Part shown: positions 35,693-51,756 of the stretch, in pieces
How the letters are laid out: every line of letters starts with the position of its first letter
Position numbering within the stretch: position 1 is the first letter of the stretch
Source of the DNA: Candidatus Poseidoniales archaeon
GTDB taxonomy: Archaea > Thermoplasmatota > Poseidoniia > Poseidoniales > Thalassarchaeaceae
DNA length: 64,000 nucleotides
Reading direction: 5' to 3'
Assembly (NCBI GenBank): GCA_012960975.1
Contig: DUAE01000055.1
Location: forward strand, 107,828 to 171,827
Translations under genes and position numbers: made by a program
The notes under the pieces: generated by a model
Told to the model about the DNA's origin: nothing
The model's database searches: none
The model's input: the letters and a program-made list of their open reading frames with translations, nothing else

Positions 35693-36577
35693 ATGGATAC
35701 CGATGCACTGCTGTCTGTCTCTCCCACAGATATGGCGAAAGCCTTACTTGCCCGTCGGCAGATGTTGAAAGAGCAATTACCGACAGTAATTCGAACACTA
35801 GAAGCAGAGGAACAATCGTTGGCTCCAAAGGTCGAGCGGGTAGTGAATTCACACCGTGTATCGAATACTAAAGTAAGTGAATTAAAATCAATTAGGAATG
35901 AATCTCAAATCAAGGCAGGAAAGTCACTTAAACAAGTAAAACTCTCACATGAAAAATTGCTTTCATCGGGTGGAATGATAAATTTAGATCCTATGTGGGT
36001 TAAGGAAAAATTACTCGAAGAACTTGAAGAAATAGAAGAAAAAATCCAAACATCTGCACTCGATCACAAAGCTGAAGGAAAACTCATCGACCGCAGAAAA
36101 AAATTGGTTGAAAAGAATGAAAATTGGTTAAAAGAACGTAGAGATTCGAACCCCGAGATGGCAATATACATCGAAGCAAGGAAAAAAATGAGTGAATATT
36201 ACCGGGAAGCAGACAAAACTCACCAGAACATGTTAGCCATGGTAAAAAAGGCTCAACCGCTTCATGAAAAACAGTTATTATTGAAAAATGAACTGCTTGA
36301 GATACGCAGGCAACTCGACCGAGCAAAGGAATTAATGGCTCAATCTGAACGTACTATTTCATACTGGGAAAGAAGATTGAATGATGGATTTGGCGAGTTA
36401 AATACCGGTTTCTCTGATTTATTAATTGCACAACAAAAGGTAGTCTCTGGTGGAAATTCTAGTTTCGCCAGAAAAAAACAGAAGAAGAACAAGAAACCCT
36501 CCCTAGGAAAAAGCGACTCCATTAAAAAATCACCTAAAAAAATTGAAGATAGTTCAAATGGAGGTGAAGAAGAGTGA
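35693..36577 (+). CDS. Coiled-coil protein B (COG1340-like), basic C-terminal tail
   Basis: 294 aa. LEEIEEKIQTSALDHKAEGKLIDRRKKL element plus the second-half ADKTHQNMLAMVKKA. Tail ARKKQKKNKKPSLGK. Its stop overlaps the GTG start of the next gene (GTGA). Confidence 0.6.
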   Translation: MDTDALLSVSPTDMAKALLARRQMLKEQLPTVIRTLEAEEQSLAPKVERVVNSHRVSNTKVSELKSIRNESQIKAGKSLKQVKLSHEKLLSSGGMINLDPMWVKEKLLEELEEIEEKIQTSALDHKAEGKLIDRRKKLVEKNENWLKERRDSNPEMAIYIEARKKMSEYYREADKTHQNMLAMVKKAQPLHEKQLLLKNELLEIRRQLDRAKELMAQSERTISYWERRLNDGFGELNTGFSDLLIAQQKVVSGGNSSFARKKQKKNKKPSLGKSDSIKKSPKKIEDSSNGGEEE

Positions 36578-37536
36578 GTAGCGAAACAAAAGATGGGATG
36601 TTTTCGGACCTTGAAGAATTATCACATACTGAAGTGAAACAACTGGTCAAGGATGCTGATATTCAAGTTCGGTCCCTTGAACAAGAGCATCAAGATATTC
36701 GAGATGAACGAAAAAATCAAATTACTCTTGTAAAATCAATGCGCCTAGCAGTTGGAGATATGGAAGAGGGAAATCTGGAGCGGAAGAAATTGCTTCAACG
36801 ATTTCATTCTGCAAGGAAATCTTTAGAAATTGCGCGAAATCAAAGAGATGCTGTAAATAGAGCAGTTCCCCCTCCGGTTAATATTCTAGAAGAATGGTTG
36901 GGAGAAACTCATCAAAGGTTAGTTACGATAAACAATGATTTGACATCAGTTCCAACGTTAAATCGGGAAATTGAGATGTTCAAACGGTTCTTCGAAATAC
37001 AGGCATCAGTTGTAAGGAAATATGATTCAGAAAAATATCATTCTGAATATGTAAAACATATTGAATCTATAAGGGAAATAACTTCAGAATTGGATAAAAC
37101 TAGAAAACCTAAACCTTCAAAATCAGAGCAATCAGATGTAGAAACGGAAAACAATGTATCTCATTCAGAACTCAGAAAATTAAGTAAACGAATTTCTAAT
37201 ATTGATAAAAAATTAGACTCACTTTACTCAGAGATAAAAGAACAAAAGAAGGAACTTAAACGGCTTCGGTCGTATGTAAATATCACAAGAGGGAGAGGGA
37301 AACCGATTAAAATTGCAGAAGTAAAAAGTCGTGCGCAGAGTGGCGGGTCACTGAATGCTGCTGAACTTGGAGCCCTCCTTAATTCAGGAGGATTAACTGA
37401 ATTAACAAGCGAGGATTCTTCAAAGACATTAAAATCTAAACTAAATAAATCCAATTCAAAACACCCAAGAAAAAAAATTGGAGTTGCCCGCCGAGGAGCT
37501 AGGAGAGGGACTCTAGCTACACGCAGAGATGACTAA
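36574..37536 (+). CDS. Coiled-coil protein C (COG1340-like), Arg-rich C-terminal tail
   Basis: 320 aa. GTG start preceded by GGAGGTGA. Heptad-rich sequence; tail HPRKKIGVARRGARRGTLATRRDD. Confidence 0.6.
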   Translation: MSSETKDGMFSDLEELSHTEVKQLVKDADIQVRSLEQEHQDIRDERKNQITLVKSMRLAVGDMEEGNLERKKLLQRFHSARKSLEIARNQRDAVNRAVPPPVNILEEWLGETHQRLVTINNDLTSVPTLNREIEMFKRFFEIQASVVRKYDSEKYHSEYVKHIESIREITSELDKTRKPKPSKSEQSDVETENNVSHSELRKLSKRISNIDKKLDSLYSEIKEQKKELKRLRSYVNITRGRGKPIKIAEVKSRAQSGGSLNAAELGALLNSGGLTELTSEDSSKTLKSKLNKSNSKHPRKKIGVARRGARRGTLATRRDD

Positions 37537-37618
37537 ACGCTAGGACGAAAACGCCGCACTGCTACTATGGTATTATATGCAACATGAATGCGCCGAGAAT
37601 ACAGGAGAGGAGTGTTTG

Positions 37619-38488
37619 ATGGATTACGCAGAAGTTCGAAGCACCCTTATTCCGAAGAATGAATCATTAGATGAAAAATTAAATTTATTCAGAAGCGATA
37701 GAGACGAATGGAATTCCAGAGTGAAGAAATATTTGATTGAAAGAAACGATATTAATCGACAAGTGAAGGAATTAATTTCAGAAGTCCAAAAGCAGAAACT
37801 GGTTAGAGACGAAGCAAATTCTAGCGTTAAAGAATTAAAAATCATAAGGGCAGAACATTCTGAGAAACTTAAAGCATTACGCGCAGAATTAAAAGAAAAA
37901 AAACCTGATGAAAAAGAAAAGTTCGAATCTAAGAAGGAACAGAAAAGATCTGAAAGACAGATTAGTACTGACATTGAGAGGTTAGATAACAAATATCAAA
38001 GAGGAGCTTTTCAGGATAACGAAAAGAAATTCGAACGTAGTATGAAAAAATTATATCAAGAATTAAAAGCTGTCAAAGCTATTAAAATGTTGAACAAATT
38101 CGCAGGATTAGAAGCAGACATTCGTGCTGCTTCTTCACTGCAAGAAAATTCCCATAAGACCGTTGAAAAAGCTGTCGGTACGGCTCAAGAAGCTCATGAT
38201 CTAATGATCGAGTTATCCGAAGAGGTAGATCGTTTGAGAGAAATAGCAAATACTGCCCAGGAAGGAGTAATTCGCTCAAAAAGAGAGGCCGATTCATTGC
38301 ATAGGAAATATATTGTATCACTTCGAAGTATTCATTCAATTCAAGATTTGTTAAAGGCAATGAACACGCAAGAACGTGAGAGTGAAGAAGATGGGAACGA
38401 AAAGTTAGAGATCAATGATTTGATGACTAGATTGATGGCGGGTGACACACTTTCCACTGAAGAATTGATGGCTTTACAACGAAATTGA
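37619..38488 (+). CDS. Coiled-coil protein D (COG1340-like)
   Basis: The ATG at 37619 is preceded by GGAGAGGAGTG; the track ORF opens at 37577. Contains the IERLDNKYQRGAFQDNEKKFERSMKKL element and AQEAHDLMIELSEEVDRL. No basic tail. Confidence 0.6.
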   Translation: MDYAEVRSTLIPKNESLDEKLNLFRSDRDEWNSRVKKYLIERNDINRQVKELISEVQKQKLVRDEANSSVKELKIIRAEHSEKLKALRAELKEKKPDEKEKFESKKEQKRSERQISTDIERLDNKYQRGAFQDNEKKFERSMKKLYQELKAVKAIKMLNKFAGLEADIRAASSLQENSHKTVEKAVGTAQEAHDLMIELSEEVDRLREIANTAQEGVIRSKREADSLHRKYIVSLRSIHSIQDLLKAMNTQERESEEDGNEKLEINDLMTRLMAGDTLSTEELMALQRN

Positions 38489-39822: not shown

Positions 39823-41403
39823 TCATGCATCCTCTGGGATGTAATAAAGATCAACACTGCCAGTGCCGAGAGCGACTGGTTGACCAACGATGATGTTTTC
39901 TGTAACACCACGGAGCTTATCTCTCTCACCGATAATACCTGCCCTAAGCAAGTGTGTGACTGTTACTTCGAAAGCCGAACGAGCTAGAATACTGTGTTTA
40001 GTACCACTAACTCCATGACGTCCAATAGCTCGTACTTCTCCTTCGCTGGTCATAACATCGGAGACCATCAATAAGTGACGAATATCTACATCTAGGCCAG
40101 CGCCTTGTAAAGTATCTAACATTTCATTGATGATCGCTTGTCGAGCAGCTTCAATCCCCAAGTAGGCATAAATCTCAGTTACATTATTTGTATAAGTTCG
40201 TGCTCGATCAACTCCAGCAAAAATACTCACCTTAGCAAGATTTGAACCGATTGTTGAGATGTAATATTCTCCAGTTTCCTTGTTAGGTCCCTGCACATTA
40301 GCTCTAATGACGTCCGGTAAACCTTTTAATCGGAGTTTTTTGATTTTTTCCTCGAGTTGAAGTAACGCGGTGTAAGTAGGTGGATCACTAGCTAAATCAG
40401 CTAGGTCATCTTCTTTGATAACACCAGGAATAATTTTTAAATTCTTAGGTTTATCTTCGTTATCTGCTTGAATATATAATCGGAGAGCACGAGATAATTT
40501 ATCTCGAACTTCTGCACCATTCATCTTTTTCAAACGAAGGTTTGAAGCATTCAATGACAAGCTAATATATCGTTGAGTGATATCTACGTCAATAGAAGCG
40601 ATGTCTACGGTCGTGGTTGTTTCGAGACCAGCAGCAATCTCTTGGACGAGTTTTTCATTCGTTCTCAATGGCTTCTTTTTAGCATTAAATTCTTCTAAAT
40701 AAATTCTCATTGTAGGAGTCTTAGGAACCTTTCTTGCATCTACAATTTCGATAATTCTTGGTAACCCTTGTGTGACGTTGACAGTTGCAACACCAGCATA
40801 GTGGAATGTTCTCATCGTCATTTGAGTTCCCGGCTCACCAATAGATTGGGCGGTTGTAATACCAACTGCTTCGTGAGGATCTACTCTCGCCTTAGAAAGA
40901 TAATACGAAGCTGATTCAATGACCTTTTTTGCTTTTGCTGGAGTCAATTTCTTGACATTCCTGGAAATTAATCCATTAACAAGATCGTTGACAATTCTAG
41001 GCGTCATAGGTACATTCATCTTTGCGGCTAAGTTTGATAGCACTTGATACATTTCTGATTCAACGTCTACATCCCTTAGGATTTGGACCATCTTTGAATC
41101 GCTATCATAGTCTTGAATCGGCAAAGATTTCTTAGCGCGAGTTCTAGAACGAGCACTTGGTTTTCTACGTACTAATGTCTTGTCAATTCTAGCAGCAGCG
41201 CGTTGGGCTGCCTTGGATGAGCCTGCCATTACTTCGAAGATTTTTGACGCTGTTCCTGAATCGGTTCCACAAATCTGAGCAATTTGAGCAGAGGTCAATA
41301 CTTTTACATCATCCCATTTCTTATCGTCAGCAAGTTTGTGAGCGTATTCTTCCTCAATTCCGAGATCCATCAACTTCTTCTTTGTTGCACTCTTTACTAC
41401 CAT
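39823..41403 (-). CDS. rpoA2: DNA-directed RNA polymerase subunit A'' with an N-terminal extension of about 105 aa
   Basis: Core motifs [62 protein letters not shown]-terminal [27 protein letters not shown]... plus a basic linker precede the conserved core. Confidence 0.9.
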
Positions 41404-44400
41404 CAGTTTCCACCCCCAAGAGCATCATCTAGGACTTGATTAATTTCGAATGGTTCACCTTTACGGCTTCGAGCAGGATCGATTCTATCTTCTCCGTACT
41501 CGAATTGAATGATACGATCAGCAGTATTTCTGACAGATCTCATATCATCATTTGAAACCTTCAAATCATCCATTGCGTTAATCAACCGACGTTGCATATA
41601 TCCAGATTTAGAAGTACGAACTGCAGTATCGACCAAGGATTCCCGACCAGATACGGACAACATGAAAAACTCGGTTGGTTCAAGCCCACGCTTGAACGAA
41701 GAAGATACGAAACCTTTCTCTTTAGCACCTTTAACTCCACGCTGGAAGTGAGTTAGGACACGCCCTTGATAGCCGCGTTCCAATCTCTTACCACGAACTT
41801 TTGGTTGCCCGATTGATCCTGCCATCATAGCCAAGTTATCCATCGAACCACGTGCACCGGATGTTGCCATCAGAACTGCAGAGTTATCATCTCCAAGGAA
41901 TGTCTTTGCAACATTACCTGATTCACCTTTACCTGAATCGAGAATTGTCAAAATATTCTCTTCAAGTGTCTCCATAGGTGTTCGGCCAGGACGAGCTTCG
42001 TAGCGGCGACCATCTTTTCCGAATTTTAATAATTCTTCATCGACAGCATCGCTAGCGCGCTTGTTAATTGCATCAATTTCTGCTTTTGCTTCCGGAGGCA
42101 AATCTTCGTCATCAATTCCTGTTGTGAATCCCATCGAAGTACAAATTGCAATCGTCATGTTTGTCATGCGGTTGATGAATTCAGCACCAACATCTGAGCC
42201 ATGAGTTTGAACCACTGCATCGAGTAATCGACCGTCTTCGGCACCGATTCCACGTTTATCGATAGTTCCCGTAACTTTTCCATCTTGGACGATAACGTTG
42301 TCACCTGATCGACTTGTATAATCTAGATTAAATCCAGTAGGTACAATCAGACTGAGAATATCAGTACCAAGATAACCAGTGACGCCATCTCTTTCAATAG
42401 CTTCTGGTAATTCTCCATCCCATCCAACTGCTCCTAATACTTCCATCACTAATTTTTTCGGGAGGAATCTGTCACCATGTGTCAAAAGATATGCACCCGA
42501 AATGTGATCGTGTATTCCACCGATAACAGATCCACCATAACGAGGTGTGATGATGTGTTCTTGGACTCTCATTAATATCTTAGCTTCTGCACGTGCTTCC
42601 TCAGATTGAATAACGTGAAGATTCATTTCATCTCCATCAAAATCCGCATTGTATGGAGTACAATCTGCGAGGTTAAATCTGAATGTCTTACCAGCCATCA
42701 CTCTGATTTCATGAACCATCATCGACATTCGATGAAGAGATGGTTGCCGATTGAATATCGTCACATCACCATCGATGAGATGACGCTCAACTACAACACC
42801 AGGTCGTGGATTTCCGTCACGGTCGAAAGTGCTTAGTCGATCTTCAACTTCAGTATGGTGGGACTCTCCATAATCATTCTCAATAGAAGGGCTTCCACAG
42901 TGAGGGCAATTAATTTCAAGATGTGCAGGGTAGAATTCATCTGGATGTGAGTGTTCCCACTTCCAACGATTGTAAATTAGAGCACGTTCATCATCTTCTG
43001 CCAGGGGCTGACCGCGTTCATCTTCACCTCTGAGGTTAGCAAGAGTTTTTTCGAGATCTACACCCCACTCTTCCTCTAATTCACCAACTGAATTTCTTCT
43101 CATTTGGCGCTTCAATTCAATACCGGGGAGGAAATTTGGAGCATGTAATACTTGGTCAAGGTCTGCACGATATCCATTGTAAGGTACGTCCTCACTATCC
43201 GTAAGACAATCGGGGTTGAGACACCGGAAACCTGCCCAAATATATTTTGTTCGATCTGTGATTCGAACACGTAATCTATCTCCACGAATGATATAGTTGA
43301 CTCCAGGATGTACATCGGGACCTCGTAGAATCATCTGTCGTAATTGTTCTCTATTTCGACTTGTAATTCGAATAGGGACGGTTAATTCTTTTGCTGTCTG
43401 AACTGGAATTCCAACTTCATTGATACCAAGGTTTGGATCTGGAGAAATAACTGTACGCGCACAGAAATTAACACGCTTTCCTGAAAGGTTACTTCGGAAT
43501 CTTCCTTCTTTACCCTTCAACCGTTGAGTCAAAGTCTTCAATGGACGACCAGATCGGTGTCGAGCAGGAGGGATACCTGCGGTTTGGTTATCGAAATAGG
43601 TAGTACAGTGGTACTGAAGTAATTCCCAAAGATCCTCTACAATCAATTGTGGAGCTCCAGCGTCACGATTTTCCCGTAGTCTCTGATTTATTCTAAGCAC
43701 ATCAACCAACTTGTGAGTTAAATCATCCTCTGATCTATCCCCACTATCCAGTGTAATTGATGGTCTAACCGTAATTGGAGGTACTGGTAACACCTTCATA
43801 ATCGTCCATTCAGGGCGGCTAGAGTGGTAATCCATACCAATAAAAATCAAATGTTGGTCAGGTATTCTTTCTAACCATTCTCTAATATCACGAGCATTGA
43901 GTTTATGCTCACCCTTATTTTCTCTCTTTTCTTTGTAAGTTGAAGGTTTGTCTAGAATGATTTTACCTTGTTCTGAACCACAATGCATGCAAATAGTTCT
44001 CTTTTTGCTTGAACATTCTTTCTCAATATCCTTAATGATTTTTTTGAATTCACGTGACCCGACCCCATGTTTAATCATTACATCCTTCACACGATCACGA
44101 TAGTAATCTTGCTCGGATTTCTCTGGATCTAATGGGTGAGAGTTTATTTGGCTATGCAGAAGTATTTGACTACATGAATTACATGTAGATTTCAATGACA
44201 TTTTAATTAAATCAGTGAAACCAATGTGCATTACGGGAAGTTCAAGAGCAATGTGACCGAAGTGGCTTGGGCACTCTTCGTGCTTATTCCCACAAGTTTC
44301 ACAACGCACTCCAGGATCTATTACACCCATTTTTGGATCCATCAATCCTTGCTTGAATGCGTGACCATCGTCACGATAAGTATCTGCAGTCTTGACCTCG

Positions 44401-44495
44401 ACAGAGGACATCTTTCGAATCTCATTTGGATCCATTAGACTGAATTTAATTGAGTCAATCCTCTTAGGGATTTTTGCAACATCTTTAGTACTCAT
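41403..44495 (-). CDS. rpoA1: DNA-directed RNA polymerase subunit A' with an internal insertion of about 150 aa
   Basis: Zn sites CETCGN..CPSHFGH; RPEW; [12 protein letters not shown]; catalytic [12 protein letters not shown]. 1030 aa. SD-like GGAGGA upstream. Confidence 0.95.
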
Positions 44496-47400
44496 TTTCG
44501 GTCCTCCAACTCAAGTCTCATAGCGACCCCTAAACTCTTCATCTCGTCCAGAAGTAGCTTGAATGCATATGAAGTTTGGACCGTGTGAACATCAGCACGA
44601 TCACCACAATAAGGACAAACACTAGTTCGGCGTTTCCAATCATAGTAAGCGATATGCCCACAACCAGTAGTGTTACAGACCATTAAGTTCCATCCATCAG
44701 ACTCATCGAGTAATCTATCTTTGATAACCATCGATGCACCGTGTGAAATCAAACAATCACGCTCCATTTCACCAAATCTTAGTCCACCCTGGCGTGCACG
44801 TCCTTCGGTTGGTTGACGGGTAAGAATTTGTACACGTCCGCGACTTCTTGCGTGGATTTTACTACTTACTAAGTGGTGCAGTCTTTGGTAGTAAATTACA
44901 CCGACAAAGATATCCGCAGGATATTCTTCACCTGTTTCACCATTAATCATTATTTCACGACCGGTATGGTTGAAGCCATTACGTAAGAGACCGGCTCTAA
45001 CAGATTCTTCCTTTTCACCAGTGAATGCGGTTCCATCAACCTTTCGACCTTCCATGGAACCGACCTTTCCACCAATCATTTCTAGAACGTGAGCGACGGT
45101 CATTCGCGAAGGAATAGCGTGTGGATTGATAAGAACATCAGGCACAACACCGTCAACAGTGAAGGGAAGATTTTCTGAATCAACCAATCTACCAATGACA
45201 CCTTTCTGGCCGTGGCGCGAAGCGAATTTATCTCCCAACTCAGGGATTTTATTGGTACGTAATGTGATTCTAACCAATCTTGTAGAATCAAGTGATTCAG
45301 TAACGAAGACATTGTCCACCCAACCGTATTCACCATGACGAACCATCATCGAAGATTCACGACGTTCTTGTGCTTGTAGGAAAGCTCCAGCCGCTTCCTC
45401 AAGGAAACGTGGAGGACTAGTCTTCCCAACTAATACCTTAGAATCCACCTTACCACTAGTTAGGAATTCTTCAGGAGTAGGTAAACCATCTCTTTCAAGA
45501 TGCGAATAATTATCCCATGATTTCAATCCTTTAATTTCATCTAGCCCTGTGCCTGGAATTTCGATTCGTTCTTCTTGACCGCCTGGGAATCTTTTATTCT
45601 CAGCGGTATAGGTTCGAATGAAAGAGGAGCGACCTAATGATCGTTCGACAGATGCACGATTCATGATGATTGCATCCTGCATGTTATATCCATGATGACT
45701 CATGATTGCGACCACGTAATTTTGCCCTCCAGGACGACGAAGGAAACCAGTTGACTGCATTGCTCGAGTACCAACTATCGATCGTTGAGGGTAGTGTAGA
45801 ATATGCGCTCTTGTATCAGGACGCAATCTGTAATTGGCACTTGGTAGTCCAAGGCTCTGTTTGACCATCGCCGTTCCACCCGTAACTCTTGGTGTTGAGT
45901 TGTGCTCTGGATATGGCACTAGAGATGCACAAACACCCAAAATTAGTTGAGGATCTACTTCTACATGAGTATAAACTAGGATTGTGTGGTTCTTCTGTTG
46001 TTTCTTAGTTAGAGTTTCAATATCAGACTGATAATAGCTAAGTGGAACACTGAAATTTTCAATTTTCTTTTCACCATTTGGGAGTTGAACTTCAACACGG
46101 AGTTTGGCCTTAGAAATTTCTGGTTTACCCAAGTTCATCCATTCAACCTTTGCAGGGTTGATTGGTCTGCCATATTTTGGTGACGCTTGAGGTATATCGA
46201 AAGGACGTGGAGCGATCAATAAATCCTCTTCTTCTTCAGCATCTACCCATTCTACAACTCCTGAAGAAACCAAATCATTGAAGATGATTTCACCAGTTCT
46301 CAGACCTTCTAAATGTTGTTTTGATAATTTTAAACTTCCATGCTCGAGAACTAGAAGTGGACGAAGAATTCGTCCACGATCGGTATTTATGAATACATCT
46401 TTGTTTTCAGTATCATGACGAATACTAACCTCATGTCGAATACGACCAGCTCGTCGGCGGGCCTTGAATTGAGCGACCAGTTTCTTTGGACGCTTGTGTA
46501 GACCGAAAATATCCCCATTGACGTGAATTCTGGAACCATCTGCCCAACCGGCAGGTGAATCATCAACACCTGCTTCCTTTAGTAGTTCTTTGACATCGTC
46601 TGAAGGCACGTCTTCAGAAACGTCGATCATTTGAGCTGCGTTCTTTACAAGACCACAATTTTGACCTTCTGGAGTCTCATTTGGACACAATCTTCCCCAA
46701 TGTGTTGGATGAAGGTCACGTGCTTCGAAATGAGGTTGACTTCGAACTAATGGACTGGTAACTCGTCGCATATGTGACAGAGCGGACAAATAGGTTGTCC
46801 GATCTAATAATTGACTGACACCTGAACGACCGCCGACCCAATTACCTGTAGCGAGTGCATGCATGATTTTTGAGGTCAAGACATCAGGCCTTAGACAAGC
46901 ATTAATTTTGAGATCACGCTTACGGTTGTGGTGTCTTTCTAGTTGATATTTTAGATCTCTAGCTAATTGTTGCAAACTAACTCGAAAGAGATCTTCAATT
47001 AAATCTCCAGCCAAGCGAACACGCTTATTTGCGTAGTGATCCTTATCGTTTGGATCTCGATTTGTAATCGCCATTTCGAGGACTTGACGGACAATACGTC
47101 CGAGGAAAATTGCTTTTTTCTCACGTACATCTGGACCATCTCCCAGATGAGGGAGAAGTTCTTTGTCCAACATATTCTGAATTCGAGATTCACGATACTC
47201 CTTCTGTTGCCCTGCTGCGAATTTCTTCTCGAGCCACGCAACTGCTTCGTCTTGAGTTTCGACACCATATTCTTCATTGTCTTTGACGTCGTTAAGGTTT
47301 GCAACGGTATATTTCATTGCTGCGACTGGCCCTGCGATTGCTGCGAAAATCTCTCGGTCATTTTCCATACCTAGTGCTCGCATAAGAAGAACGACTGGAA

Positions 47401-48199
47401 TTGCGGCGGTTCCGGCACTTGGAATTTTTACCATAAGCATACCATCTCGACGCTTTTCCACGTTCAGAGGTTTTCGAACACCGTCTTTTTGAGAGAAAAT
47501 CTTAGCAACTTCAGTTTCATGGGCATATTTTTTATTCTTTTCTACCGTAACTCGATTAGGTGCCAAATCTTCCATTGAGATTAGAACTCTCTCTGTTCCA
47601 TTAATGATAAAATAACCGCCCGTATCCATTGGATCCTCTCCTGCTTTTTGCCTTAGAGAAACAAGATGTTCAGCATCTTCTTCAGATGTATGAGGTGAAA
47701 GTTTCCGATTCGGGTCGATGTTATCGGAATGTACATTACATCGAGCGGATTTCACCATTATAGGTAAATTTCCTATGTGAACGCTAGGTTCATCGACGAC
47801 TCCGTGGGTATCTCCTGCCTCAGGAGGGATGTCATCACGATAAATTTTGAAATCCATGTAAATGGGTGAAAAATAGGTGAGCTTTCTGACACGGCATTCC
47901 ATTGGAGTAGCAGGGTGTTCAGCACCATTTGCTTCTCGTATAGTAGGTTTGCCTAATCTAAGACCCTTCAATCGAACAAAAATTTCTTTGTCTAAAACGT
48001 CGAGTTTGATCGCGCCCCCGCCAGTTTCCCCGCCAGGAATCATATCTAGGGGTTCATCGGTTCCAATTCGGATATTTCTAACGATTTTTTCCATACGGCT
48101 TGCACGTGCTTCGCCACCTAGAATACAATCGTTATATGATGCAAGTTGATGGTTTACCATGCTTCGTCTTTGAAAATAACTCTCTACAATTTCCTTCAT
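44492..48199 (-). CDS. rpoB: DNA-directed RNA polymerase subunit B (unsplit)
   Basis: 1235 aa. GLVKNAA, SRHGQKGV, RFGEMERD, and the C-terminal Zn ribbon CNTTGCGH...CPYCG. A single ORF rather than B'/B''. Confidence 0.95.
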   Translation of the reverse strand: MKEIVESYFQRRSMVNHQLASYNDCILGGEARASRMEKIVRNIRIGTDEPLDMIPGGETGGGAIKLDVLDKEIFVRLKGLRLGKPTIREANGAEHPATPMECRVRKLTYFSPIYMDFKIYRDDIPPEAGDTHGVVDEPSVHIGNLPIMVKSARCNVHSDNIDPNRKLSPHTSEEDAEHLVSLRQKAGEDPMDTGGYFIINGTERVLISMEDLAPNRVTVEKNKKYAHETEVAKIFSQKDGVRKPLNVEKRRDGMLMVKIPSAGTAAIPVVLLMRALGMENDREIFAAIAGPVAAMKYTVANLNDVKDNEEYGVETQDEAVAWLEKKFAAGQQKEYRESRIQNMLDKELLPHLGDGPDVREKKAIFLGRIVRQVLEMAITNRDPNDKDHYANKRVRLAGDLIEDLFRVSLQQLARDLKYQLERHHNRKRDLKINACLRPDVLTSKIMHALATGNWVGGRSGVSQLLDRTTYLSALSHMRRVTSPLVRSQPHFEARDLHPTHWGRLCPNETPEGQNCGLVKNAAQMIDVSEDVPSDDVKELLKEAGVDDSPAGWADGSRIHVNGDIFGLHKRPKKLVAQFKARRRAGRIRHEVSIRHDTENKDVFINTDRGRILRPLLVLEHGSLKLSKQHLEGLRTGEIIFNDLVSSGVVEWVDAEEEEDLLIAPRPFDIPQASPKYGRPINPAKVEWMNLGKPEISKAKLRVEVQLPNGEKKIENFSVPLSYYQSDIETLTKKQQKNHTILVYTHVEVDPQLILGVCASLVPYPEHNSTPRVTGGTAMVKQSLGLPSANYRLRPDTRAHILHYPQRSIVGTRAMQSTGFLRRPGGQNYVVAIMSHHGYNMQDAIIMNRASVERSLGRSSFIRTYTAENKRFPGGQEERIEIPGTGLDEIKGLKSWDNYSHLERDGLPTPEEFLTSGKVDSKVLVGKTSPPRFLEEAAGAFLQAQERRESSMMVRHGEYGWVDNVFVTESLDSTRLVRITLRTNKIPELGDKFASRHGQKGVIGRLVDSENLPFTVDGVVPDVLINPHAIPSRMTVAHVLEMIGGKVGSMEGRKVDGTAFTGEKEESVRAGLLRNGFNHTGREIMINGETGEEYPADIFVGVIYYQRLHHLVSSKIHARSRGRVQILTRQPTEGRARQGGLRFGEMERDCLISHGASMVIKDRLLDESDGWNLMVCNTTGCGHIAYYDWKRRTSVCPYCGDRADVHTVQTSYAFKLLLDEMKSLGVAMRLELEDRK

Positions 48200-48211
48200 T
48201 TAATCAACCCC

Positions 48212-48820
48212 TCACGTATTCTCCACAATTAGTCGGAATGCAGTACTTGAACCAGCAGATCTGCTATACCTGTCCACTCGCACAACCCTGTTAGTTAACC
48301 ATCCAGCAGGTAATTCATGGTTATCAATTTCTTCTGTTTCCTTTATTGATTGAATTGCAGGATCTGTAATCAAAATTTTAGGAAGTAATTCTTTGGCCAA
48401 TCTACTGGTCCCATCAAAATCTAGTTGAGTCAAATTCCAAGGAGCTAATACTGATGCTTCTTCTTCGACAGGAACTAATTCGTGATGAGGAACTAAGAAG
48501 TGATTTAAGACATTAAAACGGTCAGTGCCCTGAGGGATATCTTCATCGAGAATAGCCTTTCTAGAAATTGTAATTCTACTACTTCGGCTTCGCTTACGGG
48601 ATGCCATTTGTTCACGGATAATTCCCATGATGTTGTCCAAATCAGAATCACCAGATTTGAGATCAACCTTCTTTGCAACCTGTTCAACGGTCATACGCTT
48701 AATTGCGTCCATGTTTGCGTCGTCGGCAAGTTTGTGTGCGTGCTCCTCAGAGACACCCAATTCCATTAGTCGCTTTTTTGTTGAACTCTTAACTGCCAAA
48801 TCATCGCCCCGGGCCAGCAA
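48212..48820 (-). CDS. rpoH: DNA-directed RNA polymerase subunit H with an N-terminal extension of about 95 aa
   Basis: C-terminal core FNVLNHFLVPHHELVPVEEEASVL...LPKILITDPAIQSI...RVVRVDRYSRSAGSSTAFRLIV matches RpoH/Rpb5-C. The ORF has a TTG start at 48820. A TTG at 48799 would give (M)AVKSSTKKRLMELG..., colinear with the rpoA2 start. Confidence 0.8.
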   Translation of the reverse strand: MLARGDDLAVKSSTKKRLMELGVSEEHAHKLADDANMDAIKRMTVEQVAKKVDLKSGDSDLDNIMGIIREQMASRKRSRSSRITISRKAILDEDIPQGTDRFNVLNHFLVPHHELVPVEEEASVLAPWNLTQLDFDGTSRLAKELLPKILITDPAIQSIKETEEIDNHELPAGWLTNRVVRVDRYSRSAGSSTAFRLIVENT

Positions 48821-48847
48821 AAACCGTGAGCCTGCGGCTTAGTCAGG

Positions 48848-48921
48848 CGGGCCCGAGGGGATTCGAACCCCTGGCCACCGGGTTAAAAGCCCGGCGCTCT
48901 ACCTGACTAAGCTACAGGCCC
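48848..48921 (-). tRNA. tRNA-Lys (anticodon UUU)
   Basis: The reverse complement GGGCCTGTAGCTTAGTCAGGTAGAGCGCCGGGCTTTTAACCCGGTGGCCAGGGGTTCGAATCCCCTCGGGCCCG folds as a cloverleaf. Anticodon stem CCGGG/CCCGG with loop CTTTTAA. T arm AGGGG-TTCGAAT-CCCCT. CCA is not fully encoded (CCT follows). Confidence 0.9.
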
Positions 48922-49084: not shown

Positions 49085-50473
49085 ATGAAAAATAGAGATT
49101 CTCCAGCGGTATCATTCTCCAAAGCAGATGTAGAATCAAAAATAATAAATTTCAAAATATCTGAAACTATTTCTTATGATTTGGTGATACCAAAATCTGT
49201 TTATCCACCAAGGGAAGATACGCGACTCTTGTCCAATTCTTTGAAAATGTTAGATGGCAAGGTTGGAAATGCAATTGAAATCGGACCTGGATCTGGGATA
49301 TTAACAATTCAATTAGCAAATTTAGGCTGGAAAGTAAAAGCATATGATGTAAATCCACTAGCCGCAACAGCAACCAAGCACAACGTTGCAATAGCCGGCC
49401 TGAGCAAACAAGTAGATGTTGAAGAAGGGGCATTAGGAGATTTTGAATTCGACCTCAACAGTACAGATTTATTAATTTGGAATTTACCTTATTTATCTCC
49501 GCCATCCTCTGATGAACAACACCTTGAGTGGATAGAAGAAGCCTCAATGTCAGACTTACCCGGTAGCGGTTGGTCGGGAGAATTGATAAATTACTTGGAG
49601 AAACATATAACTAATATTAATCCCAATTTACTAATACTTTTGTTGTTTAGAACCGAACCTCAAAGTCCGAGTCTACCAGCTGATTGGGCGAATTCTGGCT
49701 GGTCGATAAGACAAGTGAATAGTGTCAGAATTCAAGATGAAAAATTAGATGTATATGCATTTTGGAAACCTGGTCTTGATACAAATCCACATTTAATAAA
49801 TTCTTGTGAATCCACGATGGATGAGGCAAAAAAATTACCTAAACTAGGGTGGCAAAGAATTAGGGCAAAGCATCAGACTGGAGGACGAGGCAGAAGAAAA
49901 TCCATCTGGAAATCTAATGATGGCGACATGATTGCAACTTGGAATATTTCTTCAGAAACATTCCAAATAATGGCACCGGGGATGATACAAACAATCGTAG
50001 GAAGTAAAATTGCTGAAATCATGGGATGTTTGATCAAATGGCCAAATGATTTAATCAATAAAAAAGGCCATAAGTTAGGTGGGATTCTAATTGAAACCGA
50101 TTCCTCCTCTGCCAATATTCGAATTGGTGTAGGCATCAATAAATCTCTAGGCGAACATAATGGGAAGAAAACATCGGGTTGGCAAGAATTTCAGCCGAAT
50201 TTAGAAAGCCAACGACTCTTTCGGCAAATTGATTCTGTGATATCATCAATTTTCGAAACTCATCCACTCCTACCCTACACCATTAATTTGGAGAGTGTAC
50301 AACTAGAATCGTGGAAAGGGATTTCTAAATCGATGTCTCGAGGTGTCTGCACTTACACAAATAATAAGAATTCACGGATTGTATCAATCAATCAGTCGGG
50401 GGAACTTGAGTTTGAAATGAGCGGTGAAAGAATTCTATTATCTGACATCGACTCAATAAAATGGAAATATTAA
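49085..50473 (+). CDS. Fusion protein: N-terminal HemK/Mtq2-like SAM methyltransferase + C-terminal biotin--protein ligase
   Basis: N-terminal half: VYPPREDTRLL, SAM motif IEIGPGSGILT, NPPY-type motif LLIWNLPYLSP. C-terminal half: ESTMDEAKKL, QTGGRGRRKSIWKS (GRGRxGRxW), IKWPNDLI, KLGGILIE, GVGIN. Confidence 0.75.
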   Translation: MKNRDSPAVSFSKADVESKIINFKISETISYDLVIPKSVYPPREDTRLLSNSLKMLDGKVGNAIEIGPGSGILTIQLANLGWKVKAYDVNPLAATATKHNVAIAGLSKQVDVEEGALGDFEFDLNSTDLLIWNLPYLSPPSSDEQHLEWIEEASMSDLPGSGWSGELINYLEKHITNINPNLLILLLFRTEPQSPSLPADWANSGWSIRQVNSVRIQDEKLDVYAFWKPGLDTNPHLINSCESTMDEAKKLPKLGWQRIRAKHQTGGRGRRKSIWKSNDGDMIATWNISSETFQIMAPGMIQTIVGSKIAEIMGCLIKWPNDLINKKGHKLGGILIETDSSSANIRIGVGINKSLGEHNGKKTSGWQEFQPNLESQRLFRQIDSVISSIFETHPLLPYTINLESVQLESWKGISKSMSRGVCTYTNNKNSRIVSINQSGELEFEMSGERILLSDIDSIKWKY

Positions 50474-50476
50474 TTT

Positions 50477-50788
50477 CTATCGCTTCTTCCTCATCACTTT
50501 AATCCCTAAACGTTCCCTTACTAGAATGATTTTTCCTGAAGAAGTAATAGTCTTGAAAGTTCCATGGTGGTTTAAAATTTCTAAAGATTCACGATAATTT
50601 TTTAACGGCACTTTAATTATAGCTAATAATTCATTTTCGACATTAATAAAATCGAATAATTTTGAGTTGAAATGTTTGAGTTCTGATTCGAGTTTATTCT
50701 GACAATCCAATCGAGATAATTTCCTATCTGATACGCTCAAACCAATCCAACGATGCTTGCCTCTAGCGACTTTATTCAAACGAGCCAC
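50477..50788 (-). CDS. RNase P protein component 2 (Pop5-like)
   Basis: 103 aa. RGKHRWIGLSV near the N-terminus (RxKxRYIxF pattern) and C-terminal FKTITSSGKIILVRERL (FKTLGVSGTIKRLKRKF in the Pyrococcus Pop5 as I recall it). Confidence 0.5.
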   Translation of the reverse strand: MARLNKVARGKHRWIGLSVSDRKLSRLDCQNKLESELKHFNSKLFDFINVENELLAIIKVPLKNYRESLEILNHHGTFKTITSSGKIILVRERLGIKVMRKKR

Positions 50789-50835: not shown

Positions 50836-51756
50836 TCATAGTCCACTGACTACGGCTGTAATTCGAAGTTTGCCAATCAAACCTTCACCAACTCTTGCTC
50901 CCATTATAACTTGGCAATTCGGACTGAGATTTGATACGAATTCGTCAGTGACCTCATTCAGATGTGAGAGTGTCATGTCGGGCCCCCCCTCGACCTGGAT
51001 CAAACAGCCACTAGCCCCATCTATATTCAAATCATAAAGAGGTGATTCGCGAGCAATTTGAACAACTCCTTTCGGATTTCTTGTAGTGCCGGTTCCTACA
51101 ATCAACGTAGAGTTTCCCTCATGACCAACAACTGACCTTAAATCCATCAAATCAAGATTGATTTTCCCTACTCTTGCGAGAGTCGACACAAGACCCTCGA
51201 CCAACTCTTCTATCCAACCTGCTCCTGATTGCCATTCCAATGCTCTCTGTTTCGCCTGCCATGCTAAGCGTTCTAGACTAATTCGAATACAAACATGAGA
51301 ATTTTTATCTAATTCTTCCATAGCATCCTTTGCTAATTGCATTCTCACTGGTTGTTCAGCGAATGGAAGGCTAGCAACTGAAACTACTAAGCAATTTGTA
51401 GATTGTGCTATTTTGGCAATTTCTGATGCGACACCTGAACCAACACCCCCACCTAATCCGGTAAGTATCACAATCATCTCTGCATCCTCTAGTAACGGTC
51501 TAATCGAGTCAAGGCCGTCCCGGAGCCGGTGGGCAGCTAGTAGTGGTAATGCAGCAGCACCACGACCATCACCAGCCGCATCGAGGTGAAGACAATGAGC
51601 TTCGGCTGAACTAAGAAAAGAGTGCTCATCTGCATCGATCAGAAGCAGGTCTGCTAATCGCGGGCAACGAGAATGGGCATTTTGAGCCCAAATACAACCC
51701 AATCCACCAACGCCTGTAATCAGCAAGTCGCCCTGTTTCACAGACAAGCCAGACAA
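50836..51756 (-). CDS. Divergent FtsZ/tubulin-superfamily protein
   Basis: 306 aa, TTG start. Colinear with FtsZ: LLITGVGGLGCIWAQN (GvGGgGnN), LLIDAD, tubulin-signature variant ILTGLGGGVGSG (GGGTGTG), SLPFAEQPVR (PFxFEGxxR), T7-like KINLDLMDL (NxDxxD), GASGCLIQVEGGPDMTL. No C-terminal tail. Confidence 0.6.
   Translation of the reverse strand: MSGLSVKQGDLLITGVGGLGCIWAQNAHSRCPRLADLLLIDADEHSFLSSAEAHCLHLDAAGDGRGAAALPLLAAHRLRDGLDSIRPLLEDAEMIVILTGLGGGVGSGVASEIAKIAQSTNCLVVSVASLPFAEQPVRMQLAKDAMEELDKNSHVCIRISLERLAWQAKQRALEWQSGAGWIEELVEGLVSTLARVGKINLDLMDLRSVVGHEGNSTLIVGTGTTRNPKGVVQIARESPLYDLNIDGASGCLIQVEGGPDMTLSHLNEVTDEFVSNLSPNCQVIMGARVGEGLIGKLRITAVVSGL

Follow-up and report, generated by a model that had tools for sequence, protein, structure and literature searches.

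What is an RpoH subunit of RNA polymerase doing with more than ninety extra residues at its N-terminus? Archaeal subunit H is described in textbooks and in the primary literature as the Rpb5 C-terminal domain only, "without any N-terminal extensions" (PMC3906176), and the solved archaeal H subunits are 77-84 amino acids (aa) long (1hmj, 1eik, 4qiw_H, 2waq_H). The stretch of DNA analyzed here (64 kb of contig DUAE01000055.1, hereafter the window) contains a gene at 48212..48799 on the (-) strand that is the rpoH of a Marine Group II (MGII; Poseidoniales) archaeon, and its 195-aa product is about 2.5 times the normal size, as the first-pass annotation of this DNA had claimed. We regard it as nearly certain that the extension is a genuine, translated and order-wide module shared by the polymerase subunits H and A''. 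Because the module also heads RpoA'' and a few non-polymerase proteins, the question shifts from one odd RpoH to a lineage-specific N-terminal module that is used twice per enzyme. The Poseidoniales polymerase carries a lineage-specific accessory domain whose predicted fold is a common one but whose sequence family is unassigned.

The N-terminal module of RpoH and RpoA''

The open reading frame (ORF) at 48212..48820 (-) adjoins the upstream side of an unsplit rpoB and matches Pfam RNA_pol_Rpb5_C (PF01191) over the full model (positions 1-73) at residues 102-198 of its 202-aa reading (E 1.1e-11; 44.8 bits against a cut-off of 23.5). Since this match begins only at residue 102, about 100 residues lie ahead of the recognizable core, which agrees with the extension originally reported. 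The best PDB match is Methanocaldococcus jannaschii (M. jannaschii) subunit H (E 2.4e-7), and alignment to 1hmj_A places two lineage-specific insertions of 11 and 13 aa in the core, which account for its length of 103 aa. The NCBIfam RpoH equivalog NF007129 scores 49 bits against a cut-off of 83, and orthologs are consequently named by NCBI 'RpoH/Rpb5 C-terminal domain-containing protein' or 'hypothetical protein'. Counted from the start codon adopted below, 92 residues with no family assignment precede the core. They comprise a module and a linker whose isoelectric point (pI) of 11.4 bears out its earlier description as basic. In a full-length AlphaFold2 model the linker has a predicted local distance difference test (pLDDT) score of 33-39, and the motif [KR]ITI.xKA of the linker region is common to Marine Group IIa (MGIIa) and Marine Group IIb (MGIIb). 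In the window, and also in the MGIIa locus L082 with Pfam assignments, rpoH is the first gene of an rpoH-rpoB-rpoA'-rpoA'' operon.

The first-pass annotation had left the choice of start codon between TTG 48820 and TTG 48799. From GTDB species genomes 80 loci were retained, and rpoH could be located in 79 of them. All 79 have a start codon at the position equivalent to TTG 48799 (ATG in 49, TTG in 26 and GTG in 4), while the in-frame stretch upstream of it spans 4-53 codons and shows no conservation. This comparison sets the start at TTG 48799, not at TTG 48820, and the length of the product at 195 aa. The latter codon is separated by a mere 25 nt from the 3' end of a tRNA-Lys(UUU) gene, whose position limits the upstream extent of the rpoH ORF. 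This tRNA gene is found at the same place in 19 of the 22 orthologous MGIIb loci checked as well as in the MGIIa locus L082, and the distance from its end to the rpoH start is 46 nt in the window and 47 nt in L082. The spacer between the two genes (48800..48921 region, (-)) is short and G+C-rich and has no obvious A/T-rich promoter element, so that rpoH may be co-transcribed with tRNA-Lys.

Selection on the extension was assessed from Nei-Gojobori counts for 2346 species pairs of 195-aa orthologs. The ratio of the proportions of nonsynonymous and synonymous differences (pN/pS) is 0.057 in the tail (residues 2-11), 0.17 in the module (residues 2-66), 0.44 in the linker (residues 67-92) and 0.29 in the core (residues 93-195), with pS about equally saturated across all of these regions (0.73-0.82). 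A low ratio in the module together with saturated pS indicates that the extension is translated and is more constrained than the polymerase-binding core; the constraint acts on the protein and not on the RNA. The weak TTG start in the window, and the fact that these organisms are uncultured, might suggest an annotation artefact, in which translation would begin near residue 93 and the stretch ahead of it would be either a leader that is not translated or a small gene of its own. We consider such an artefact virtually impossible, given that the start position is conserved in every scorable locus and is most often ATG, that constraint at the protein level is strong while synonymous change is free, that module and core are read through without an intervening stop codon in all 79 loci, that no conserved methionine was found near residue 93 in the RpoH orthologs, and that RpoA'' has the same architecture.

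This second copy of the module was overlooked by the first-pass annotation. It stands in the same operon, 7 kb downstream of rpoH, with rpoB and rpoA' between the two module-bearing genes. A tblastn search within the window matches the RpoH extension to RpoA'' at E 2.6e-13, with 52% identity over 50 aa; residues 1-27 of the two modules are 74% identical and the remainder 19%. The Pfam Rpb1_5 match in RpoA'' begins at residue 103, and residue 124 aligns to residue 9 of the solved Rpo1C chains, which indicates an N-terminal addition of ~115 aa on A''. As in RpoH, a basic segment follows the module (residues 63-102: pI 11.3, 12 lysines plus arginines in 40 aa), and in both subunits this segment is probably flexible. 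The MGIIa locus L082 has the order tRNA-Lys, rpoH with module, rpoB, rpoA', rpoA'' (517 aa) with module, and rpl7ae, and both RpoH and RpoA'' carry the module in MGIIa and in MGIIb. Between the two groups the H modules are 56% and the A'' modules 66% identical. Identity between H and A'' modules is lower (42-44%), and the duplication therefore predates the split of MGIIa and MGIIb. Beyond rpoH, rpoA'' and the queried carriers, no further copies of the module were found in the window or in 85 loci.

The extension is retained throughout the relatives surveyed, which settles the question that had been raised as to whether related genomes keep it. More than 1000 proteins in a metagenome and genome collection match RpoH over its full length, and 157 GTDB species genomes encode the long form. 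The 80 retained loci all belong to Poseidoniales / Marine Group II, mostly to Thalassarchaeaceae, the nearest at 97% identity; a more distant RpoH form of 216 aa, of the 'ATDRNMTDIK' type, occurs in Poseidoniaceae (MGIIa).

An exhaustive HMMER search with the 92-aa extension against 1.84 billion representative proteins (E<=0.001) returned 83 matches. In nearly all of these the match begins at the first residue of the protein, and the few that start elsewhere look like over-extended start calls or fragments. Two large groups stand out among the matches, namely RpoH and proteins that continue into the trigger-loop region of RpoA''. Conservation is concentrated in the first part of the module: across 30 diverse carriers the commonest residue has a mean frequency of 0.78 in columns 1-27 and 0.43 afterwards. 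T7, L11, L24 and A25 are invariant, with conservation of 90% or higher at M1, V3, K4, S5, K8, K9, G15, A21 and D27. Residues 1-27, which form a basic tail, a helix, a tight glycine-containing turn and a second helix, are thus the part common to all carriers, and within them the pattern L11-x-x-[LM]-G15-[VI]-x4-A21-x-x-L24-A25 is 90-100% conserved. The modules have a pI of about 6, and the tail and linkers a pI above 11. No Pfam family was found for the module when RpoH, RpoA'' and 30 module sequences were searched as single sequences; NCBIfam and PHROG gave no consistent match, and profile searches of the PDB found no sequence match to the module.

Other carriers and the genomic setting

Outside the polymerase, the module is found at the start of several otherwise unrelated proteins. 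P0132 (413 aa) has the entire RpoH-type extension, including the linker up to 'DDDIPTGD', followed by a cysteine-rich body with zinc-ribbon-like motifs. P0130 is also cysteine-rich, P0156 is a coiled coil, and P0173 has no assignable domain. P0131 has two HMMER-matched stretches, the second of them module-like (LGIKDEHAEAL...) and beginning near residue 104. The largest carriers are P0196 (1292 aa) and its relatives of 1200-1480 aa, which have no Pfam domain and of which only some members bear the module. A further metagenomic carrier, P0245, has an internal repeat of IEEKYAHLLADDKKW, a second or partial copy of the module.

On the contigs encoding P0132 and P0250, nearly every gene lacks a Pfam or PHROG family; what stands out on them is a 3012-aa ORF without any match, a NUDIX gene and a thymidylate-synthase-like PHROG match. 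The non-polymerase carriers look as if they reside on a virus or mobile element, which is not proven: what points that way is confined to the ORFan-rich context, the thymidylate-synthase-like match, the NUDIX gene and one relative recovered from the Tara size fraction below 0.22 um. Neither the module nor the 1292-aa P0196 had a match in IMG/VR or among GenBank phages (INPHARED). One possibility is that these carriers are encoded by Marine Group II viruses or mobile elements, which would have captured 5' ends from rpoH and rpoA''. Table 1 gives the coordinates of the features discussed.

Table 1. Module-bearing genes, their parts and associated features; coordinates are those of the window except in the last row, where they are those of the named loci.
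Feature	Coordinates	Strand	Description and basis
rpoH CDS	48212..48799	(-)	195 aa + stop, TTG start at 48799; ORF, Rpb5_C match, conserved start position
RpoH N-terminal module, residues 1-66	48602..48799	(-)	basic tail MAVKSSTKKR + five predicted helices; AlphaFold2, pN/pS
RpoH basic linker, residues 67-92 (SRKRSRSSRITISRKAILDEDIPQGT)	48524..48601	(-)	pI 11.4
Rpb5-C (RpoH) core, residues 93-195	48215..48523	(-)	Pfam PF01191; alignment to 1hmj_A
tRNA-Lys(UUU)	48846..48921	(-)	ARAGORN; 3' end 46 nt upstream of rpoH start
rpoB	44492..48199	(-)	unsplit, 1235 aa
rpoA'	41403..44495	(-)	1030 aa
rpoA'' CDS	39823..41403	(-)	526 aa; N-terminal extension ~115 aa vs solved archaeal A'' (391-397 aa)
RpoA'' module copy, residues 1-62	41218..41403	(-)	in-window tblastn with RpoH extension
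RpoA'' basic linker, residues 63 to ~115	41059..41217	(-)	composition; boundary from alignment to solved A''
Non-polymerase carriers	L081 10001..11242; L083 10001..14434; also L084, L085		RpoH-type or RpoA''-type module at start

The other two large subunits encoded in the operon show features of their own. RpoA' has a stretch of ~150 aa with two CxxC pairs ahead of a conserved segment, which, judging by typical archaeal A' lengths, looks like a lineage-specific zinc-ribbon insertion. RpoB, whose length in the MGIIa locus is 1205 aa, probably carries lineage-specific insertions too. Beside the operon, a 103-aa basic ORF (50477..50788 (-)) and a 306-aa tubulin/FtsZ-like ORF (50836..51756 (-)) occur in an order that is conserved between MGIIa and MGIIb, and the syntenic gene of the latter in L082 has Tubulin and FtsZ_C Pfam matches. 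Divergent from the tRNA-rpoH unit is a 462-aa ORF (49085..50473 (+)), in which a methyltransferase-like N-terminal part (motif NLPY) seems to be fused to a biotin/lipoate protein ligase-like C-terminal part; its syntenic gene in L082 has a BPL_LplA_LipB Pfam match. Further away, three consecutive ORFs of 294-320 aa (35693..38488 (+)) are highly charged and coiled-coil-like, and are apparent tandem paralogs.

Predicted fold and possible roles

The module alone was modeled with AlphaFold2 from a diverse 30-sequence alignment, and this model (pLDDT 79.5; predicted template modeling score, pTM, 0.58) was used for Foldseek searches. It has predicted helices at residues 6-14, 18-26, 30-35, 38-44 and 52-66 and an unstructured tail at residues 1-5; a turn of only three residues (G-V-S) joins the first helix to the second, and the second turn has 7 residues. 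The full-length RpoH model (43 close orthologs; pLDDT 48), in which the core was not folded, was dropped from the fold search. The module is predicted to adopt a SAM-like five-helix fold, a class that includes the double helix-hairpin-helix or (HhH)2 domains, and the Foldseek matches in the PDB, weak as they are, form a coherent list made up of these two kinds. SAM domains are represented by SARM1, EphB2, LEAFY and Ste50, with template modeling (TM) scores on the query of 0.62-0.69 (EphB2 0.69, LEAFY 0.69, SARM1 0.62-0.68) and E of 0.95-3. The (HhH)2 matches are the C-half of UvrC (root-mean-square deviation, rmsd, 1.9 over 57 columns), FANCM/FAAP24, ERCC1/XPF, the N-domains of RadA and RAD51 paralogs, and NusA; their TM scores are mostly 0.52-0.64 (NusA 0.49), with rmsd mostly 1.9-3 and up to 5.0. 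A Foldseek search of the BFVD viral structures was uninformative. Since SAM and (HhH)2 domains belong to one fold class, the prediction cannot separate them.

The first-pass annotation had proposed an HhH motif of the RadA/Rad51 type. The five-helix model and the presence of RadA and RAD51 N-domains among the structural matches are in keeping with this proposal; the assignment is no more than partly supported, with no HhH match in Pfam or in PDB sequences and with SAM domains matching equally well or better. In the first motif of the module, its best conserved part, the distances from G to A and from A to the hydrophobic residue agree with the HhH consensus (h-x-x-h-x-G-h-G-x-x-x-A-x-x-h, reportedly described by Doherty and colleagues in 1996), and L11, G15 (90%), A21 (97%) and L24 (100%) are conserved. 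The second glycine of the consensus is absent, and the spacing before the first glycine is one residue short. The second hairpin fits the canonical spacing exactly, and does so only in the A'' copies. With no sequence match, and with weak Foldseek matches split between SAM and (HhH)2 domains, 'HhH-like' is therefore a plausible but unproven description.

Each of the two kinds of domain resembles the module in some respects and differs from it in others. Like the module as predicted, (HhH)2 domains span about 60 residues in five helices, the first two of them joined by a tight turn that contains glycine; the RadA/Rad51 domain is likewise N-terminal and tethered by a linker. They differ in that no sequence relationship is detectable, that the module has GVS or GIE in place of GIG and a degenerate second hairpin, and that (HhH)2 families have no counterpart of its invariant basic N-terminal tail (VKSATKK). 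SAM domains give the best structural superpositions (TM 0.62-0.69), are five-helix bundles with a long last helix, and are portable modules found on many different proteins, but the module has no SAM Pfam match: SAM_1, SAM_2 and SAM_PNT were absent from the Pfam matches of the 30 module sequences. SAM domains are seldom met with in archaea and, to our knowledge, none has been reported from a subunit of RNA polymerase; the literature searched contained no such report either.

Subunit H sits where DNA enters the polymerase, distant from the RNA exit, and the C-terminal part of the largest subunit is A'' in archaea. Rpo5 contacts this C-terminal part (PMC13257274). We tentatively propose, with somewhat less than even confidence, that the modules are tethered DNA contacts at the jaw side of the polymerase. 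Two flexibly tethered modules would make contacts with duplex DNA at the DNA-entry (jaw) side that are not sequence-specific, the basic tails and linkers would add electrostatic grip, and the two modules might pair in the manner of the (HhH)2 domains of XPF/ERCC1. They would thereby supply in cis what is supplied by the Rpb5 jaw in eukaryotes, by Rpo13 in Sulfolobales and by the alpha C-terminal domains in bacteria, and would make either the open complex or the grip on the DNA downstream more stable. Several observations speak against DNA contact. The globular part of the module is slightly acidic; no HhH Pfam family matched the RpoH module even at E<=10 (one of the 30 module sequences matched HHH_6, at E 0.096), and no HhH protein was matched by the module in the profile search of the PDB. 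Foldseek gave nothing in the PDB with E<0.001, which is usual enough for a 68-residue query, and all E were above 0.7, with SAM domains scoring equal to or above (HhH)2 domains. The second hairpin is poorly conserved (G46 53%, A52 37%) and has a 2-residue insertion in the RpoH copy. Finally, the occurrence of the module at the head of unrelated proteins on ORFan-rich contigs suits a docking or targeting tag at least equally well.

SAM domains usually bind proteins. As the main alternative to DNA contact, the modules might serve in SAM-type docking or oligomerization, in which the H and A'' copies bind each other or a common partner, or recruit module-bearing proteins to the polymerase; look-alikes on Marine Group II viruses or mobile elements would then serve to reach the same partner. 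We judge this somewhat unlikely. Several observations favor it. The highest Foldseek TM scores go to SAM domains, and the module sits at the extreme N-terminus of proteins that are otherwise unrelated, including P0132, where the RpoH-type extension with its linker stands on a different body, and only some members of the P0196 family. Carriers lie on contigs in which nearly all genes lack known families, with the one relative from the small Tara fraction, and the second half of the module is specific to each paralog (19% identity between H and A''), as would be expected for distinct partner surfaces. Against docking of this type stand the absence of any SAM Pfam family match, the unproven viral origin of the other carriers, which had no IMG/VR or INPHARED matches, and the pattern of conservation: SAM polymers typically use mid-loop and end-helix surfaces, whereas the best conserved part of the module is the basic tail and a helix-turn-helix with HhH-like spacing. 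Docking and DNA contact are not mutually exclusive, because (HhH)2 domains also heterodimerize. The SAM-like fold class also includes RNA-binding members, and the module could bind RNA, be it the nascent transcript or a regulatory molecule, in the way that Smaug and Vts1 do through their SAM domains, assisted by its RS-like, arginine/serine-rich linker (SRKRSRSSR). RNA binding by the module is improbable in our estimation, as neither Vts1 nor Smaug is among the top 50 Foldseek matches and subunit H is far from the RNA exit.

Returning to the polymerase as a whole, the H and A'' modules might be a built-in tethered pair that together make up a DNA clamp or a platform for docking at the jaw, peculiar to this lineage. 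Viruses or mobile elements might have taken over the 5' ends of both genes, equipping their own proteins with the module and so gaining access to the polymerase or to its partner. This combined scenario is doubtful, and we offer it as a speculation. If true, multisubunit RNA polymerases would have a new family of accessory domains, and the archaea that are most abundant in the plankton would be subject to host mimicry of a new form.

Comparison with accessory elements of other polymerases

No description of the RpoH extension or of the A'' extension was found in the literature searched. A survey of variants among the small subunits, dated 2026, deals with Rpo6 and Rpo8 but not with Rpo5, and does not mention Poseidoniales; a preprint on the Charybdis element proved to be unrelated to the module. 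A whole order of very abundant marine archaea departs from the rule that subunit H has no extension, and does so coordinately on two neighboring subunits, which bears on how accessory DNA-contact or docking elements come to join multisubunit polymerases. The module constitutes an easily recognized new domain family (pattern ending ....A..LA) that can be used to correct start-codon calls of rpoH and rpoA'' in thousands of metagenome-assembled genomes, and it offers a handle on transcription, and possibly on virus-host interplay, in organisms that are not yet culturable.

The closest analogy in position is the jaw of eukaryotic Rpb5, a mixed alpha/beta domain that lines the downstream DNA channel. 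In both cases an extra domain is N-terminal to the Rpb5-C core, and the subunit is about 200 aa long. The notion that the two are homologous, so that this archaeon would have a 'full-length Rpb5', could draw on PDB profile alignments that run upstream of the core (query 43/55-127 against Rpb5 80/97-169). The upstream parts of these alignments are almost without identities and carry no signal, the weak E of 0.002-0.007 deriving from the C-domain; Pfam Rpb5_N (PF03871) has no match even at E<=10, the five predicted helices are unlike a mixed alpha/beta jaw, and the same module is present on RpoA'' and on non-polymerase proteins. We therefore rejected homology with the jaw, which is effectively refuted. 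The lack of an Rpb5_N match and the all-alpha predicted fold imply independent acquisition at the jaw position, as had originally been suggested, and the resemblance is one of analogy, the two being unrelated in sequence and in predicted fold.

The bacterial alpha C-terminal domains, which make non-specific or UP-element DNA contacts and dock factors, are similar to the modules in that they are small, helical, of the fold class predicted for the modules, present in two copies per enzyme and attached by flexible linkers. They differ in being C-terminal and on another subunit (the Rpo3/D equivalent), and they were not among the top 50 Foldseek matches of the module. Within the archaea, Rpo13 of Sulfolobales and Desulfurococcales is likewise a lineage-specific small helical element, docked on Rpo5/H, whose strongly basic flexible tail is believed to extend to DNA within the entry channel (PMC2675907). 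Unlike the module, which is fused to H and, as a second copy, to A'', Rpo13 is a polypeptide of its own and has a helix-turn-helix. When the module profile was compared with all PDB chains, including the entries that contain Rpo13, no RNA polymerase chain was matched at E<=10. The Rpb5 jaw, Rpo13, the alpha C-terminal domains and the module of Marine Group II look like four independent solutions for providing a multisubunit polymerase with accessory elements for DNA contact or docking.

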